A model generated the notes under the pieces. The model was not told where the DNA came from. It was given only the letters and a program-made list of their open reading frames with translations, and did no database searches. A stretch of 4,692 nucleotides of DNA from positions 1-4,692 of IMG/VR virus record IMGVR_UViG_2778261344_000007; one strand, 5' to 3'. Both the position numbers and the translations under genes were made by a program. Positions 1 through 4,692 of the stretch are shown here, piece after piece; the first letter of the stretch is position 1; every line of letters starts with the position of its first letter. The DNA comes from a virus. Taxonomy: Duplodnaviria; Heunggongvirae; Uroviricota; Caudoviricetes.

Positions 1-53
1 CTTGCCCACTCGTTATATTTTTCCGCATTAATGGCTTTCTGTGTATTTAACAT
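1..53 (-). CDS. hypothetical protein, 5' end only (17 codons; gene runs off the window start)
   Basis: Minus-strand ATG at 51-53 preceded by GGAGG (plus 61-65, read as CCTCC) with a 7-nt spacer. Frame stays open to position 1 (MLNTQKAINAEKYNEWA...). Too short to name. Confidence 0.4.
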   Translation of the reverse strand, partial: MLNTQKAINAEKYNEWA

Positions 54-158
54 AAATATACCTCCAGTTAAGGATTAAATTTTATTTACAGTGCTGAACT
101 TAATTATTCAGATTTGGATTATGCTTTCTCTTCACGAAGTTCCGATTGTTAATTTGGC

Positions 159-581
159 TCACAACAGCACCTTCTGAAAATTACCCTGATAGAAAGCCAG
201 TACACGCTGCATAGCTTCGCTCTTCCGGCACTCGCTACAGATTATGTTCAGACGCCTGTCGTAGCGGCGTATTTCTCCGTCTGGTAATGACCAGATAAGA
301 TCCGGATCAACCACAACCGGTTTCTTCACCTTTGCCCTTGATAGTTTTTTGCGGGCGTTTTGCCAGTCTTTACGCGCCTGCTCAGACGGGAATAATCCGT
401 AGCCTGAATTGTAAACATCACCACTGGCGACCAGTTCTCTGGCGAGAGTGCTTATGTAATACCTTGATGCACCGGTTTTAGCCTCCAGAGCCCGTAACGT
501 CTCGCGACCGCTCAGACGTACAAGTTCAACAACCTGCCCTTTAATTTTTTCCCGCTCTTCTGGTGTAAATACTTTTGCCAT
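159..581 (-). CDS. Ren-like protein, 140 aa (N-terminal winged-helix-like region, C-terminal ECRKSEAMQRVLAFY motif)
   Basis: ORF-track frame 159..596; start placed at ATG 579-581 because GGAGG lies 5 nt upstream (plus 587-591). The C-terminus ...CSECRKSEAMQRVLAFYQG resembles my recollection of the phage lambda Ren C-terminus (...KECRQSAAMKRVLAVYG). Position distal to the replication genes matches lambda ren. Recollection not verified by search. Confidence 0.7.
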   Translation of the reverse strand: MAKVFTPEEREKIKGQVVELVRLSGRETLRALEAKTGASRYYISTLARELVASGDVYNSGYGLFPSEQARKDWQNARKKLSRAKVKKPVVVDPDLIWSLPDGEIRRYDRRLNIICSECRKSEAMQRVLAFYQGNFQKVLL

Positions 582-596
582 AGGTGCCTCCGGCAA

Positions 597-1358
597 TCAC
601 TTTTCCGACACAATACGACTGGAGGAATCGAAAATCTGTCGAACAATATCCCGGTGCTTGTTCAGCTCCCGCAGCGCGGCGCAGACTCGCTCCCACTTCT
701 GGACATGATTTTTCGCCCGACGCAGTTCGCGGTTTGCCATATGCAGCGATGGTAAAACCAGGTCATCCGCTCGCGTTTCAGTAAACGATGGCAGCGACTG
801 CACAATGTCCGCCACCGTTTCTGTTTTAATATCTTCCTGTGTTGCAGCCTCCTGTACTGGTAACGCAACACCTGTGGGCTGAGGAAAGGCCTTACCATCA
901 GTTTCCGCTACCGATGCTGCTTTCGGCTCTGCTGGTAAATTATCGCCCGGTATGCAGTAACGAAATTTACCGTTCTGGTTTACGCGAATCAGGCGTCCTT
1001 TGCTGATAGCCATTGCCAGCGTTGAAGCTACTTTGCGTGATGTGGTACCGAACAATGTAGCCAACTCATCCGCCGTTTGTGGGCCACGTTGTTCAATCGT
1101 CGCGGTTAAATCGCACTCTGAGATTTTCGCTACTGTTGCCATGGTGGTTTCTTCCGGCAGCTCTGCCGGCGCTGGCTGTTCCTGCTGAACGTTGTTATCA
1201 GCCACGCGCCAGGTGTATACGCTTTTATCAACGAAGCCAGCCTTTTTCAGTTCCCACAGCTCGTTCAGCACTTCTTCTCGACTGATATCAAGTCGCGTAG
1301 CCAGTTCTACCGACGTGGCTTTTCCCATCGCTTTCAGTGCGTCAAAAACGGTCTCCAT
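597..1358 (-). CDS. prophage protein with two winged-helix-like domains, an acidic/Pro-rich linker and a basic helical C-terminus (DUF1627-like), 253 aa
   Basis: ORF-track frame 597..1409; start placed at ATG 1356-1358 (METVFDALK...) because GGGAGG lies 8 nt upstream (plus 1367-1372), whereas the longer start at 1409 has no RBS and would overlap ydaV by 29 nt. Two HTH-like segments are readable ([30 protein letters not shown] and [32 protein letters not shown]). Family assignment is from memory. Confidence 0.75.
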
Positions 1359-1380
1359 TAAAATTTCCTCCCGGTAAAAA

Positions 1381-2127
1381 TTACTTCTCAATACCTGGCT
1401 GACCAACATTCGGGCGCCAGCTCTCCCAGTTAAAATTCACCCAGCGCCCGCCGTTCATGGTCATGCGATCCATAATCCGCTCGCCGAGCAATGTTTTCAT
1501 GGCCTCATAGTTCAGGTTTGTCAGCATCCCCACGCTGCGCATTGACGCTGTCCGGCGATCAACAATCTGGTGCAGTACCACCTGCTCGTTTTTCGTCTCG
1601 CGCTGAATACCAATTTCATCAAGAACCAGCAGATCAACTTCGCACAGTTCCCGCAAAAATTTTTCGCCTGACTGCCCGTCGTCATAGCTGGCGTGCAGGG
1701 CGCTCATAACATCAGCCACGGTAACCACAATCACTGTCTGGCCATCTTTCAGCAGGCGATTCCCGATAGCCGCCGCCAGATGGTTTTTTCCGGTACCAGG
1801 TTTTCCGCTGAACGCGAAATTTGTGCATCCGGTAACCAGTTCGTCAGCGATAGATTTCGCCTGACTCAACGCGTATCGCTGGCCGTCGTTCTGCACCTGG
1901 TAATTCGCAAACGAGCATTTGCGGTGCAACGGCTGTATGCCGGAGCGATTCAGGATTTTTTCCACCCGCAACTGACGATTCTGACGGTTGATCTCCTCAC
2001 AACGTTTCTGGCCTTCTGCAAGTTGCCACTCGCGCCACTCCGCCACCGTCCTGAATGGCGCGGTTACATGTGGCGGGGCCAGTCTGCGGATACGTTCCAG
2101 AACGCCGCCTGTCGCAATATTTTTCAT
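1381..2127 (-). CDS. ydaV: DnaC/IstB-like AAA+ ATPase, putative replicative helicase loader (lambda P analogue by position)
   Basis: 248-aa ORF with Walker [12 protein letters not shown] and Walker [10 protein letters not shown] readable in translation. ATG 2125-2127 with AGGGGG upstream; starts 6 nt after the ydaU stop. Length and context match Rac prophage YdaV as I recall it. Confidence 0.88.
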
Positions 2128-2133
2128 GGTCTG

Positions 2134-2922
2134 TTACCCCCTGAAGCCTGGCGGGATCGCACTGTCCGGAAACGAGACGGTGTTAATCTGTCGGAGCAAC
2201 GTCTCTGGCCGAACACCTTTCGGCGCGAACAAGCCCTGGTATTCATTGGCGATGCTGTGTCGAATCACCTGCTCAGGTGAAAAACCCTGCTGGCGGAATT
2301 TTTCCAGCTCCCGTATCGCCCCGTTAGCGCCCTGCTCCGTTCGAATCGGTTTTCGCAATGCCTGCCTGAACTGAACCCACTCATGCCAGAGTGTTTCCGG
2401 CAACCAGTCAGGCAGCTCGATAGCCTCCGGTTCGAATTTTTTAGACGCTCGTTTTTGGCGAGGGGGATTTAGGGGGAGATAAGTATTTATATCTTCCTCT
2501 TTCTCTTCCTCTGGTAACGCTTTTTGATCCGTTTTTGTAACGCTGGCAGCGTTACCTTTTCGTTTCAGTTCTCGTATTTTTGTTACTCTCTCGTTTGTAA
2601 CCGCCCGTTTTTTAGAGCTTTTCCCGTTATGGCGCTCAAAGTTAGGAAGCGACAACACACCATTAGTTTCGACCAGCCATCCAACCTGAATTAACGCATC
2701 AGCAAAACCAGCCATAAAAGTGATGCGATCTATTGCACTTTTTGTAACGCCGCGAGCGTTACACTCTGCGTTACCGTCTATCATTTGTTGATCCGCCCAT
2801 GCCCAGAAGCGAATGACTTTCCCTAATGCGGCATCTGGATCAATATTCAGAATCTCAGCAAGCCTGAATATTTCCGGCTTATCCGGCGTAATAACTTCGA
2901 GCTTTATCCAGTTTGAAGCCAT
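2134..2922 (-). CDS. ydaU: putative replication initiation protein, YdaU family (lambda O analogue by position)
   Basis: 262-aa ORF, ATG 2920-2922 with AGGTGA about 7 nt upstream. Two-domain layout with a charged low-complexity linker (KSSKKRAVTNERVTKIRELKRKG...EEEKEED) whose coding DNA carries the palindrome/T-tract cluster. Lies directly upstream of the DnaC-like gene. Symbol assigned by synteny and length class, not by search. Confidence 0.8.
   Translation of the reverse strand: MASNWIKLEVITPDKPEIFRLAEILNIDPDAALGKVIRFWAWADQQMIDGNAECNARGVTKSAIDRITFMAGFADALIQVGWLVETNGVLSLPNFERHNGKSSKKRAVTNERVTKIRELKRKGNAASVTKTDQKALPEEEKEEDINTYLPLNPPRQKRASKKFEPEAIELPDWLPETLWHEWVQFRQALRKPIRTEQGANGAIRELEKFRQQGFSPEQVIRHSIANEYQGLFAPKGVRPETLLRQINTVSFPDSAIPPGFRG
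2514..2622. other. candidate replication origin: cluster of GTAAC/GTTAC half-sites with T-tracts inside the ydaU linker-coding DNA
   Basis: GTAAC at 2514, 2537 and 2597, GTTAC at 2551 and 2582; T4-T6 runs at 2521, 2532, 2557, 2577, 2608 and 2619. Just upstream lie GGGGGATTTAGGGGGAG (2462-2478) and an AT-rich/polypyrimidine stretch (2479-2510). Confidence 0.35.
2536..2556. repeat. palindrome copy 1: TGTAACGC-TGGCA-GCGTTAC (inside ydaU, codons 123-130 GNAASVTK)
   Basis: Arms of 8 bp read directly; the reverse complement matches. Confidence 0.85.
2743..2763. repeat. palindrome copy 2: TGTAACGC-CGCGA-GCGTTACA (inside ydaU, codons 54-61 CNARGVTK)
   Basis: Perfect 8-bp arms, 5-bp centre, read directly. 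Confidence 0.85.
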
Positions 2923-2934
2923 TTGTTTTCACCT

Positions 2935-2955
2935 TGTAACGCTCGCAGCGTTACA
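2935..2955. repeat. palindrome copy 3: TGTAACGC-TCGCA-GCGTTACA (non-coding, ends 2 nt before the ydaU Shine-Dalgarno)
   Basis: Perfect 8-bp arms read directly; located in the 77-bp ydaT-ydaU spacer. Confidence 0.85.
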
Positions 2956-2964
2956 TTTAACTGA

Positions 2965-2986
2965 TACCGAACAAAACAGTTCGGTA
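2965..2986 (-). other. hairpin TACCGAAC-AAAACA-GTTCGGTA in the ydaT-ydaU spacer (8-bp stem, 6-nt loop, no U-tract)
   Basis: Perfect 8-bp inverted repeat read directly; lies between the ydaT stop (3000) and palindrome copy 3. Confidence 0.4.
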
Positions 2987-2999
2987 CGATTAATTTCAA

Positions 3000-3422
3000 T
3001 CAATGCACTACGACAGAATCGCTAGGAGAACCGCCGCCGCTGAAATGTGCTTTACGGTAAACGGCCTGGACTGCATCATCATGCGCATCAATTGCCGTAC
3101 TCAGTGCATCCTGTGCCGCCAGTAATGCACGGCGTTCCAGGGTATCGAAGATGCAGAGTCGGTGACGCAGCTCGCGAGGAAGAATTGCCAGAACCGCAGG
3201 GATCAGTTTCTGAATTTTTTCCCTTTGCGCATTCGTTTCACCTTTCAACCAACGATGATAGATATTCTGCTGATTGTTCCAGTCCTTGCCTGGTACCAGG
3301 GGCAATTCGCCGCCCCCCTGGCGCAGATATTCTTCAGTAATTGCGTTAGCGACCCACGCCTGCCCTTTTTCGGCTGCCAGGGCTAACAACACTGATTCGA
3401 TGTGCTCATGCTTGATTTTCAT
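3000..3422 (-). CDS. ydaT: YdaT-family protein (CII-like regulator of Rac-type prophages; historically annotated as a toxin)
   Basis: 140-aa ORF beginning MKIKHEHIESV..., which I recognise from memory as YdaT of the E. coli Rac prophage (unverified). ATG 3420-3422 overlaps the ydaS TGA 3419-3421 (ATGA coupling); GGGAG lies 7-8 nt upstream. Confidence 0.88.
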   Translation of the reverse strand: MKIKHEHIESVLLALAAEKGQAWVANAITEEYLRQGGGELPLVPGKDWNNQQNIYHRWLKGETNAQREKIQKLIPAVLAILPRELRHRLCIFDTLERRALLAAQDALSTAIDAHDDAVQAVYRKAHFSGGGSPSDSVVVH

Positions 3423-3429
3423 GAATCAA
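3412..3429. promoter_or_regulatory. perfect inverted repeat TTGATT-N6-AATCAA centred on the ydaS stop / ydaT start overlap
   Basis: TTGATT 3412-3417, ttcatg 3418-3423, AATCAA 3424-3429, read directly. A weaker relative (ACGATT-N6-AATCAA, 2986-3003) overlaps the ydaT stop. Confidence 0.4.
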
Positions 3430-3673
3430 CTCCCATCAGCTTTTTCGTAGTAGTTTTATTTCTGCCAATAGTTAAAATTGCATCGGCAGAAAATAATCCG
3501 TTTGATGCATGAGCGATTTTTTCAGCGTAATTTGTTTCGCCGGTATATTCTGTGCGAGGCAATTTACCGTTATCCATCCATTTGTAGATTGCTCTTTGGC
3601 TGACACCACAAACGTCGGCCACAACAGAAACGCGAACAGTTTTGATTACATCTTCAAGTGTTTTCTGGTTCAT
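3419..3673 (-). CDS. ydaS: Cro-like small HTH regulator (YdaS-like), 84 aa
   Basis: ORF-track frame 3419..3745; start placed at ATG 3671-3673 (MNQKTLEDV...) because GAGGGTGA lies 5 nt upstream, whereas the ATG at 3745 has no RBS and sits inside the repressor promoter. HTH-like segment VADVCGVSQRAIYKWMDNGKLP. First gene of the operon, divergent from the repressor. Symbol by synteny. Confidence 0.75.
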   Translation of the reverse strand: MNQKTLEDVIKTVRVSVVADVCGVSQRAIYKWMDNGKLPRTEYTGETNYAEKIAHASNGLFSADAILTIGRNKTTTKKLMGVDS

Positions 3674-3697
3674 ATCACCCTCACAATGTGAACTTTG

Positions 3698-3732
3698 AGT
3701 ACATGCTATAACAGAACTGACAGTACATTCAA
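3698..3732 (-). promoter_or_regulatory. candidate early-right promoter (PR-like) for the ydaS operon: -35 TTGAAT (plus 3727-3732), 16-bp spacer, extended -10 TGtTATAGC (plus 3705-3713)
   Basis: Read on the minus strand; would give a leader of about 25 nt containing the ydaS RBS. The -10 is imperfect (ends in C). Confidence 0.4.
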
Positions 3733-3753
3733 GAGCGAATATCATTGAACTTA
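3717..3753 (+). promoter_or_regulatory. candidate repressor-maintenance promoter (PRM-like): -35 CTGACA 3717-3722, 17-bp spacer, -10 TATCAT 3740-3745; predicted start at or beside the racR ATG (leaderless mRNA)
   Basis: Hexamers and spacing read directly; the -10 ends 7 nt before the ATG at 3753 and no RBS is present. Lambda cI mRNA from PRM is leaderless (established), which gives a precedent. Confidence 0.45.
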
Positions 3754-4172
3754 TGGTTCATGAAGATAAAGCGCGTAAAGAGTTCGCCAGTAGGCTTGCG
3801 CTAGCCTGTGAAAACGCTGGTTATGAACAACATGGAAGGCAGGCAGAAATTGCCCGTCGAATGAAATTAACACCAAAAGCGGTTAGCAAATGGTTTAATG
3901 GTGAAACAATTCCTCGCCGAGAGAAATTAAGGGAATTAGCAACACTCATTGGAACAACACCAACCTATCTTTTGGGAGAGGATACAGAAGAAAGTGGACA
4001 GATACGTTTCTATCAGGAGTTAAATCCAAGACAAAAAATCATCATTGACCTTCTGGACGAGCTCCCTGACAGTGAGACAGATGAACTTTTAAAAACTCTT
4101 GAGGAGAAAAAACAGAAGTACAATGCAATTTACGAAGAGTTAGCACGAAAGAAAAAACAAAAAGCCTCTTAA
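3753..4172 (+). CDS. racR: CI-like prophage repressor, XRE-family HTH with a charged helical C-terminus (RacR-like), 139 aa
   Basis: ORF with HTH segment QAEIARRMKLTPKAVSKWFNGETIPRREKLRELATLIG, divergent from the cro-like gene. No Shine-Dalgarno precedes the ATG at 3753, but a good -10 ends 7 nt upstream. Symbol is positional (racR-ydaS-ydaT-ydaU-ydaV order). My memory of K-12 RacR length differs, so this may be a variant repressor. Confidence 0.8.
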   Translation: MVHEDKARKEFASRLALACENAGYEQHGRQAEIARRMKLTPKAVSKWFNGETIPRREKLRELATLIGTTPTYLLGEDTEESGQIRFYQELNPRQKIIIDLLDELPDSETDELLKTLEEKKQKYNAIYEELARKKKQKAS

Positions 4173-4182
4173 ACCAGCATAA

Positions 4183-4220
4183 ATCCGGTAGCGTCCCCCT
4201 CCGGGTTTGTGCTTCACTTT
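4183..4220 (+). terminator. weak candidate terminator after racR: stem ATCCGG / CCGGGT (4183-4188 and 4201-4206, one G-U pair), 12-nt loop, then T-rich TTGTGCTTCACTTT
   Basis: Hairpin begins 11 nt after the racR stop. The stem is short, the loop long and the T-run interrupted, so this is weak. Confidence 0.25.
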
Positions 4221-4247
4221 ATCCCGTCTCATTTTTTTATACATAAA

Positions 4248-4291
4248 ATGTACTTAAAGTACTTTACAATGATGAACACAAAGTACATTAT
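4248..4291 (+). promoter_or_regulatory. operator/promoter cluster downstream of the repressor (OL/PL-like): inverted site 4248-4262 containing palindrome GTACTTAAAGTAC, direct site GAACACAAAGTACAT 4274-4288, candidate -35 TTTACA 4263-4268 and -10 CATTAT 4286-4291
   Basis: Motif copies read directly. Hexamers are moderate matches with a 17-bp spacer, oriented toward the small ORFs at 4464 onward. Confidence 0.4.
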
Positions 4292-4463
4292 ATACCTACC
4301 AACCCACCCCGCCCCACAGAACGCCGGGCAATACTTCGAGTTACCAGGCAGTGGTCAGGGGTTAAGTAGCCAGCCCGAGGCGTATGAACATGACGGCGGG
4401 ATTCAAATTTTGCAGTGCAGCAGTTAGTTCCGCCACCCGGCGTTAAGGGGAAATGAGGTCAAC

Positions 4464-4616
4464 ATGGATACTATCGATCTTGGCAACAACGAATCTCTGG
4501 TATGTGGCGTGTTTCCCAATCAGGACGGCACATTCACCGCCATGACGTATACCAAAAGCAAATCGTTTAAAACCGAAGCTGGCGCGCATCGCTGGTTAGC
4601 AAGAAACTCCGACTAA
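4464..4616 (+). CDS. small early-left protein, 50 aa (MDTIDLGNNESLVCGVFPNQDGTFTAMTYTKSKSFKTEAGAHRWLARNSD)
   Basis: ATG 4464-4466 with GAGG (4455-4458) 5 nt upstream; below the ORF-track size cutoff. Position corresponds to the small ydaG/ydaF genes next to racR in Rac, but I cannot say which. Confidence 0.6.
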   Translation: MDTIDLGNNESLVCGVFPNQDGTFTAMTYTKSKSFKTEAGAHRWLARNSD

Positions 4617-4627
4617 TGAGGTTGACG

Positions 4628-4692
4628 ATGGAATTTAAAGATTTACCTCCTTCAATCCAGGAGATTGCAGCACACACACTTCGTCATCGTCT
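4628..4692 (+). CDS. small protein, N-terminal 21 codons (MEFKDLPPSIQEIAAHTLRHR...), continues past the window end
   Basis: ATG 4628-4630 with GAGG (4618-4621) 6 nt upstream, starting 11 nt after the previous stop; frame open to the window end. Confidence 0.5.
   Translation, partial: MEFKDLPPSIQEIAAHTLRHR

Follow-up and report, generated by a model that had tools for sequence, protein, structure and literature searches.

The closest described counterparts of the locus analysed here are the YdaT sites of the prophages CP-933P and K-12 Rac. In CP-933P, YdaT recognizes the sequence 5'-TTGATTN6AATCAA-3', the operator OM, located at the end of ydaS and the start of ydaT; work by DNase I footprinting, ITC, and SAXS described a protected 25-bp region holding OM and sub-micromolar binding (Prolic-Kalinsek et al., 2023, PMC9986795). 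A YdaT-dependent promoter, PRE933P, has been placed at the same junction (Jurenas et al., 2021, PMC8630535). In K-12 Rac, YdaT was footprinted on 5'-ATGATTCATGAAAATCAA-3', a sequence across the ydaT ATG termed the YdaT-box, and racR-directed transcription was activated 29-fold in a box-dependent manner (Wons et al., 2025, PMC11879457). The same study found that the CP-933P box is bound by K-12 YdaT both in vitro and in vivo, and that a Rac box-dependent reporter is activated by CP-933P YdaT. Both groups looked at the ydaS/ydaT junction by analogy with lambda CII (PMC9986795; PMC11879457).

The window considered here, the whole 4,692-nucleotide stretch of a viral record (IMGVR_UViG_2778261344_000007, positions 1 to 4,692), is the immunity and replication region of a Rac-like lambdoid prophage (Table 1). 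A motif scan for TTGATT-N6-AATCAA returned a single perfect match in the window, reading TTGATTCATGAAAATCAA on the minus (coding) strand. On that strand the ydaS-like ORF ends GTT GAT TCA TGA and ydaT begins ATG AAA ATC AAG, so that the dyad axis of the palindrome falls inside the ATGA overlap of the two genes. The original prediction had described a palindrome on this overlap and had suggested that a palindrome of this form was the site of a YdaT homologue in a related cryptic prophage. The palindrome is real, the homologue is CP-933P YdaT (PMC9986795), and the sequence is identical to the published OM and differs by one base from the K-12 YdaT-box (PMC11879457). The palindrome is the published YdaT operator; the observation is correct, and it was already known. 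As elsewhere in the YdaT-box family, the inverted repeat has an intact TGATT-N6-AATCA core, lies between the gene for the Cro analogue and ydaT, and stands alongside a cognate YdaT with a conserved recognition helix.

Table 1. Coordinates of genes, sites, and predicted promoter elements in the window
Feature	Position	Strand	Remarks
ydaV	1381-2127	-	
ydaU (replication-initiator-like)	2134-2922	-	
ydaT, CII analogue	3000-3422	-	140 aa; Pfam PF06254 YdaT_toxin, E 6e-11
Conserved island / module boundary	3399-3439	none	megablast
YdaT operator (YdaT-box / OM)	3412-3429	none	TTGATT-TTCATG-AATCAA; arms 3412-3417 and 3424-3429
ydaS-like Cro analogue	3419-3673	-	84 aa, HTH; O104:H4 type; 19% identity to K-12 YdaS
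ATGA overlap	3419-3422	-	ydaS-like stop TGA 3419-3421 and ydaT start ATG 3420-3422; ORF list, sequence
Putative ydaT Shine-Dalgarno, at predicted PRE -35 position	3431-3435	-	GGGAG on -, CTCCC on +
Predicted -10 hexamer TAGTTT of PRE-type promoter, via ydaS toward racR	3451-3456	+	comparative anchoring; putative function
Predicted YdaT-dependent transcription start, ~3463	3461-3465	+	predicted from -10 position
racR-like CI analogue	3753-4172	+	139 aa, HTH_3; presumed target of PRE-type transcript

The window YdaT matches PDB entries 8bt1 and 3c4r over its full length (E about 1e-6) and is 94% identical to K-12 YdaT, so that the activator is essentially the same protein in both prophages. The recognition helix (NIYHRWLK) is identical, as are residues 44-63 overall, including H56, R57, and W58 (K-12 numbering). 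The K-12 box likewise lies over the ydaT start, where its role in activation toward racR has been shown (PMC11879457). However, the K-12 box matches at only 17/18 positions, with ATGATT in place of TTGATT on the ydaT-sense strand; K-12 ydaS and ydaT are separated by a 22-bp gap rather than joined by an ATGA overlap; the K-12 ydaS, racR, and intergenic operators are unrelated to those of the window; and the published K-12 model puts the activated promoter ~190 bp away (PMC11879457). CP-933P shares with the window the entire 18-mer, including the spacer (TTGATTTTCATGAATCAA; L002 1514-1531), as well as the ATGA overlap, a -10-like hexamer (TACAAT, offset 39), and a YdaT-dependent PRE-type promoter. 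Its YdaT, by contrast, is only 31% identical to that of the window, its Cro and CI analogues (YdaS and PaaR2) are unrelated, and its downstream operon holds the toxin-antitoxin pair paaA2-parE2. The same 18-mer is also present in an O104:H4 prophage (L003 1214-1231). With the O104:H4 type, the window YdaS and RacR share 98-99% identity, whereas they show 19-21% identity and no DNA match to their K-12 counterparts and are likewise unrelated to those of CP-933P.

Comparison with the K-12 (L001, NZ_CP064679), CP-933P (L002), and O104:H4 (L003) loci places the change between these relationships at the palindrome. In megablast searches, K-12 matches end at window position 3428 and O104-type matches start at 3399, and prophages with otherwise unrelated ydaS and ydaT DNA share only the island at 3399-3439 (hits H35-H40, query 500-540). 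The junction sequence is common to the window, K-12, CP-933P, and O104:H4, and every match class among 2199/5426 complete E. coli genomes contains the island; Cro-side cassettes diverge straight after the palindrome. A 1351-bp region around the palindrome is 100% identical to prophages of E. coli O111-type and other strains; E. coli E2863 (NZ_AP018802.1), which carries this prophage type, is a 100% match. By these matches, the window is a mosaic of a K-12-type ydaT and an O104:H4-type ydaS/racR, joined at the palindrome. Because the matches of the different genome classes start and stop there, the operator is the recombination joint between immunity cassettes and the ydaT-replication module. 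Because its arms also sit inside coding sequence, otherwise unrelated Cro-like proteins end GVDS*, and the 31%-identical YdaTs of the window and CP-933P both start MKIKHEHI. The locus illustrates how a regulatory site anchored where two modules meet dictates coding sequence on both sides, namely the terminal VDS* of Cro-like proteins that are otherwise unrelated and the initial MKIK of YdaT. Rac-like ydaT loci also occur in records of a Candidatus Nanosynbacter MAG, a Collinsella MAG, and Actinobacillus phage vB_Apl-pPE4 (L009, L010, and H46). L009 and H46 show 93-94% identity to E. coli sequences, and L010 is of the CP-933P type; all three probably reflect E. coli prophage DNA that was mis-binned or came in as contamination.

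The palindrome is retained well beyond these loci. A total of 258 junctions of Escherichia, Klebsiella, Pectobacterium, and Stenotrophomonas phages was gathered from three sources: genome contigs, which gave 9 loci, and viral contigs and phage records, which supplied most of the diversity. The TGATT-N6-AATCA core has no mismatch in 250/258 junctions and one mismatch in the other 8/258, in agreement with the conservation across homologous prophages that the original prediction had proposed to look for. The outermost arm positions vary, with the fully perfect T...A form found in 82/258 junctions, and 21 spacer variants occur. Among distant sites, arms are kept and spacers changed in Pectobacterium phage ZF40 (CTGATTATCAAGAATCAA), Stenotrophomonas phage BUCT708 (CTGATTACGCTTAATCAA), and Klebsiella Kp4882-1 (CTGATTGATGGAAATCAA). 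Coincidence of the box with an ATGA overlap is not essential, given the 22-bp gap in K-12 and the intergenic box of ZF40-like phages, which lies 35-59 bp upstream of the cII-like start. On the Cro side, 36 mutually unrelated cassettes adjoin the palindrome.

A further group of CII-like proteins of ~179 aa, with an N-terminal extension, is encoded by phages Klebsiella 5 LV-2017, PhiR47_2, mEp237, 4A7, CobraSix, HK639, and PHB10 (L094, L095, L098, L101-L104). No clean TTGATT-N6-AATCAA was found for the ~179-aa proteins of mEp237, 4A7, HK639, CobraSix, PHB10, and Klebsiella phage 5; a degenerate TTGA(T/G)..N..T(T/A)ATCA lies ~48 nt into the gene across the group, with TAnnnT at offset 38. These loci, which are mutually homologous, were left out of the cassette counts. 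Their arrangement suggests a diverged operator within the same architecture.

These data bear on whether the palindrome is a protein-binding site at all. As the original prediction granted, an inverted repeat with 6-bp arms is not rare in itself: perfect 6-N6-6 repeats of any sequence number 3 in the window, against 1.24 expected. This excess, together with the exact position of the palindrome on the mosaic joint, could be read as the mark of a chance repeat, or of a mere homology patch for module exchange that does not bind YdaT in the window. However, chance would give only 0.001 perfect matches per window to the motif as specified beforehand, the identical 18-mer has direct binding data with CP-933P YdaT (PMC9986795), and arms that stay invariant across genera around a free spacer are characteristic of a dimer-binding site, not of a recombination patch. 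We give this explanation next to no weight.

Alternatively, the palindrome might act mainly in RNA, as a hairpin in the ydaS-ydaT mRNA that holds the ydaT AUG in its loop and tunes translational coupling. The predicted MFE structure does contain a 6-bp stem around the AUG, and the palindrome coincides with the ATGA overlap; however, the fold is no better than that of shuffled sequences (z = -1.06; 31/200 shuffles fold as well). The arms are also kept where the box misses the start codon, as in K-12 and the ZF40-like phages, and it is the arm sequence itself that is conserved, not mere complementarity, with no compensatory changes seen. Protein footprints on the palindrome have, moreover, been published (PMC9986795; PMC11879457). 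Arms that stay fixed around a variable spacer, wherever the start codon lies, point to a dimer-binding operator and against an RNA hairpin, which we regard as very improbable.

A position over the ydaT ATG and putative Shine-Dalgarno sequence would also suit negative autoregulation, in addition to or instead of activation, with YdaT on its own start codon blocking readthrough or translation of ydaT. With more protein, the CP-933P YdaT footprint lengthens to about 95 nt (PMC9986795), which would be compatible with such a block. In K-12, however, a ydaT reporter with the wild-type box behaved as one with a mutated box across the whole YdaT gradient (PMC11879457), and the intergenic box of ZF40-like phages is unfit for obstructing a start codon. 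Autoregulation from this site therefore seems quite unlikely.

The original prediction also pointed to a degenerate relative of the palindrome on the ydaT stop. Such a sequence does exist, at 2986-3003 (ACGATTAATTTCAATCAA), with 2 mismatches and overlapping the stop codon at 3000-3002, but it is unsupported as a site. By chance alone, the window would contain 0.34 matches with at most 2 mismatches (P about 0.29). One of its mismatches falls in the core, which is whole in 250/258 family sites, at a position that was never the mismatched one in the family examples inspected. Just 41/89 loci that share this ydaT type carry the copy, the corresponding K-12 sequence departs from the motif at 7 positions, and neither YdaT paper reports binding at the ydaT-stop sequence (PMC9986795; PMC11879457). 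A second YdaT site at 2986-3003 was accordingly rejected as chance-level and lineage-specific. Between ydaU and ydaT, the plus strand, antisense to the operon, carries a terminator-like hairpin (2965-2986, TACCGAACAAAACAGTTCGGTA) with a T-rich tail, and this element overlaps the palindrome-like sequence at 2986-3003.

The original prediction had proposed a search for a plus-strand promoter toward racR, with a -10 within about 25 bp. A consensus scan found no sigma-70-like promoter on the plus strand between 3430 and 3716, as would be expected of an activator-dependent promoter with a poor -35. Independent Cro-side cassettes were aligned on the palindrome and read on the strand toward the repressor gene. 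Counted from the start of the palindrome, TAnnnT lies at 38 or 39 bp in 10/10 of the first cassettes and in 31/36 of all cluster representatives; the other five retain A in second and T in sixth position, such that nAnnnT is found at this offset in 36/36. Against a background per position of 1.4% for TAnnnT and 5.9% for nAnnnT, the binomial P values are 4e-43 and 1e-34; the offset rule was picked post hoc on the same data, though P values of this size withstand any reasonable correction. No enrichment was observed at other offsets or on the opposite-strand control. The hexamer at the conserved offset is TACAAT in CP-933P, TATGAT in K-12 (L001 1649-1654), and TAGTTT in the window, where it begins 21 bp past the palindrome, within the range first proposed. 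TAGTTT agrees with the consensus at 3/6 positions, and it was detected solely through comparative anchoring, having been missed by the consensus scan. Immediately after the palindrome, a CTCC-like tract recurs in most E. coli and Klebsiella cassettes. The family-wide -10 spacing of 38/39 bp is new here, and would imply a proximal PRE-type promoter with YdaT near -42.

Published reporters bear on this geometry. Reconstructed from the published primers, the YdaT-responsive CP-933P reporter is a 120-bp fragment (L002 1496-1615) in which the palindrome is flanked by only 18 bp upstream and 84 bp downstream, with TACAAT at the same offset. A proximal-promoter model fits this reporter. No mapped YdaT-dependent transcription start was found in the YdaT studies consulted.

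In K-12, a different model has been proposed, in which YdaT at the box would stimulate a far promoter inside ydaS; applied to the window, YdaT at the palindrome would act on a PracR4-like promoter ~190 bp away, with no proximal promoter involved. The K-12 authors credit PracR4, and their reporter with the box at its natural distance of ~190 bp gave the 29-fold activation. A YdaT tetramer can hold two duplexes, and further weak operators were footprinted in the K-12 intergenic region (PMC11879457), so looping to weaker operators between racR and ydaS might be the route. However, the same K-12 reporter also held the conserved proximal TATGAT, PracR4 was left unmutated in the YdaT-activation assay as described in the text consulted (PMC11879457), and the PracR4 hexamers TTGACG and TACGCT stand 21 bp apart (L001 1818-1850), outside the usual 15-19 bp. 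The CP-933P reporter, moreover, functions with its 84 bp of downstream sequence. In the window, ydaS and the intergenic region bear no relation to the K-12 sequences, which leaves PracR4 without a counterpart: the consensus scan gives only a racR-proximal promoter at 3717-3745, and transfer of the K-12 intergenic operators is ruled out by the unrelated cassette. No YdaT site with at most 3 mismatches occurs in 3430-3760, including the racR-ydaS intergenic region. The K-12 TATGAT begins 38 bp from the YdaT-box start and is better placed than PracR4. A proximal PRE is thus favored for the window, since the K-12 construct held TATGAT, PracR4 went unmutated in the assay as described there, its hexamers are unusually widely spaced, and the K-12 ydaS type is absent; activation from a distance appears unlikely here.

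Our preferred reading is that the palindrome is the YdaT operator, equivalent to CP-933P OM and the K-12 YdaT-box, and that YdaT bound to it would activate a proximal plus-strand promoter toward racR; we would put its probability at roughly 85%. YdaT binding and box-dependent activation have been shown by others with near-identical components, and are predicted for the window allele. YdaT would accumulate as the ydaS-ydaT operon (rightward-type, on the minus strand here) is transcribed, and its tetramer would bind the high-affinity operator that adjoins its own gene, switching on an otherwise silent plus-strand promoter. From the conserved spacing we infer the exact promoter and start in the window: a -10 at TAGTTT, a start near 3463, and a poor -35 (AACTCC) that, read on the minus strand, would double as the ydaT Shine-Dalgarno sequence. 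This would center the YdaT dyad at -41.5/-42.5, with the promoter-proximal arm abutting the -35 in a class-II-like arrangement. The transcript would run antisense across ydaS and on into racR, increasing repressor synthesis and opposing expression of the Cro analogue, much as CII does at lambda PRE. The downstream consequence may differ between prophages.

More broadly, all YdaT-family CII analogues could share one module, consisting of TGATT-N6-AATCA with a -10 at 38/39 bp and the activator at -41.5/-42.5, a generalization to which we would give slightly better than even odds. If it is true, the activation from a distance of ~190 bp ascribed to PracR4 in K-12 would reflect initiation at an unnoticed proximal promoter, namely TATGAT at the ydaS stop and ydaS-ydaT spacer, and the module would mark the swap point of immunity cassettes among Rac-like prophages.

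Other sequence elements in the window may also be regulatory. The promoter-like sequence CTGACA-17-TATCAT (3717-3745, plus strand) ends 7 nt ahead of the racR ATG at 3753, so that the racR mRNA is predicted to have little or no leader; leaderless mRNA has been reported for lambda cI and CP-933P paaR2 (PMC8630535). The heptamer AGTACAT/AGTACTT is present in 6 copies, compared with 0.65 expected in the window, at 3698-3704 and 3722-3728 in the racR-ydaS intergenic region (24 bp apart) and in a cluster at 4248-4288 just past racR. These sets look like OR- and OL-type operators of the RacR-like repressor and the Cro analogue. Additionally, a 19-21-bp palindrome, TGTAACGC-N5-GCGTTACA, occurs in three copies with ~200 bp spacing (2535-2559, 2742-2766, and 2934-2958), within and just upstream of ydaU, and these copies are candidate origin or initiator binding sites.

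The palindrome itself adds nothing new, being the operator already described for lysogeny establishment in Rac-like prophages, here shown in its perfect form in a widespread non-K-12 immunity type. The residual interest is in the family-wide fixed -10 spacing and in the operator as mosaic joint. The comparative data define, for a CII analogue, a promoter geometry that is precise enough to test and that calls the published distance-activation model into question.

Among better-known regulatory systems, the locus does not follow the pattern of a type II toxin-antitoxin operator, which sits in the promoter ahead of its two-gene operon and mediates autorepression by the antitoxin or the toxin-antitoxin complex: the palindrome lies between two genes, and the YdaT-bound site acts positively on the opposite strand (PMC11879457). 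The historic annotation of YdaS as an antitoxin and YdaT as a toxin has itself been rejected (PMC8630535).

At class II sigma-70 activator promoters, the activator is centered close to the -35, as for CRP at -41.5. The arrangement predicted here is similar, in that a palindromic, dimer-type site would be centered at -41.5/-42.5 of the putative start and its proximal arm would border a weak -35, although CRP belongs to a protein family unrelated to YdaT.

The original prediction had considered the junction an unusual place for a CII-like activator site; lambda indicates the opposite. The lambda CII site, TTGC-GTTTGT-TTGC, occupies 38369-38382, codons 4-8 of cII (ATG at 38360; checked in NC_001416), within the 5' end of the activator's own gene, and PRE is directed back through cro, making this the canonical location. 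YdaT and CII are nonetheless unrelated at the level of protein family: the sole Pfam match of the window YdaT is PF06254 YdaT_toxin, family-level sequence homology to CII is undetectable, and YdaT has a POU-like domain and a 222-symmetric tetramer with a fold unrelated to CII (PMC9986795). The sites differ as well, since the lambda direct repeat TTGC-N6-TTGC straddles the -35, whereas the window has an inverted repeat with other half-sites, centered at about -42 by our estimate rather than at ~-32.5 (counted on the lambda sequence), or about one helical turn further upstream. In organization, however, the two correspond: both activators are tetramers encoded after the Cro-type gene, both sites lie at the junction of those two genes over the 5' end of the activator's gene, and in the window, as at lambda PRE, a promoter with a poor -35 would point back through the Cro gene to the gene for the repressor.
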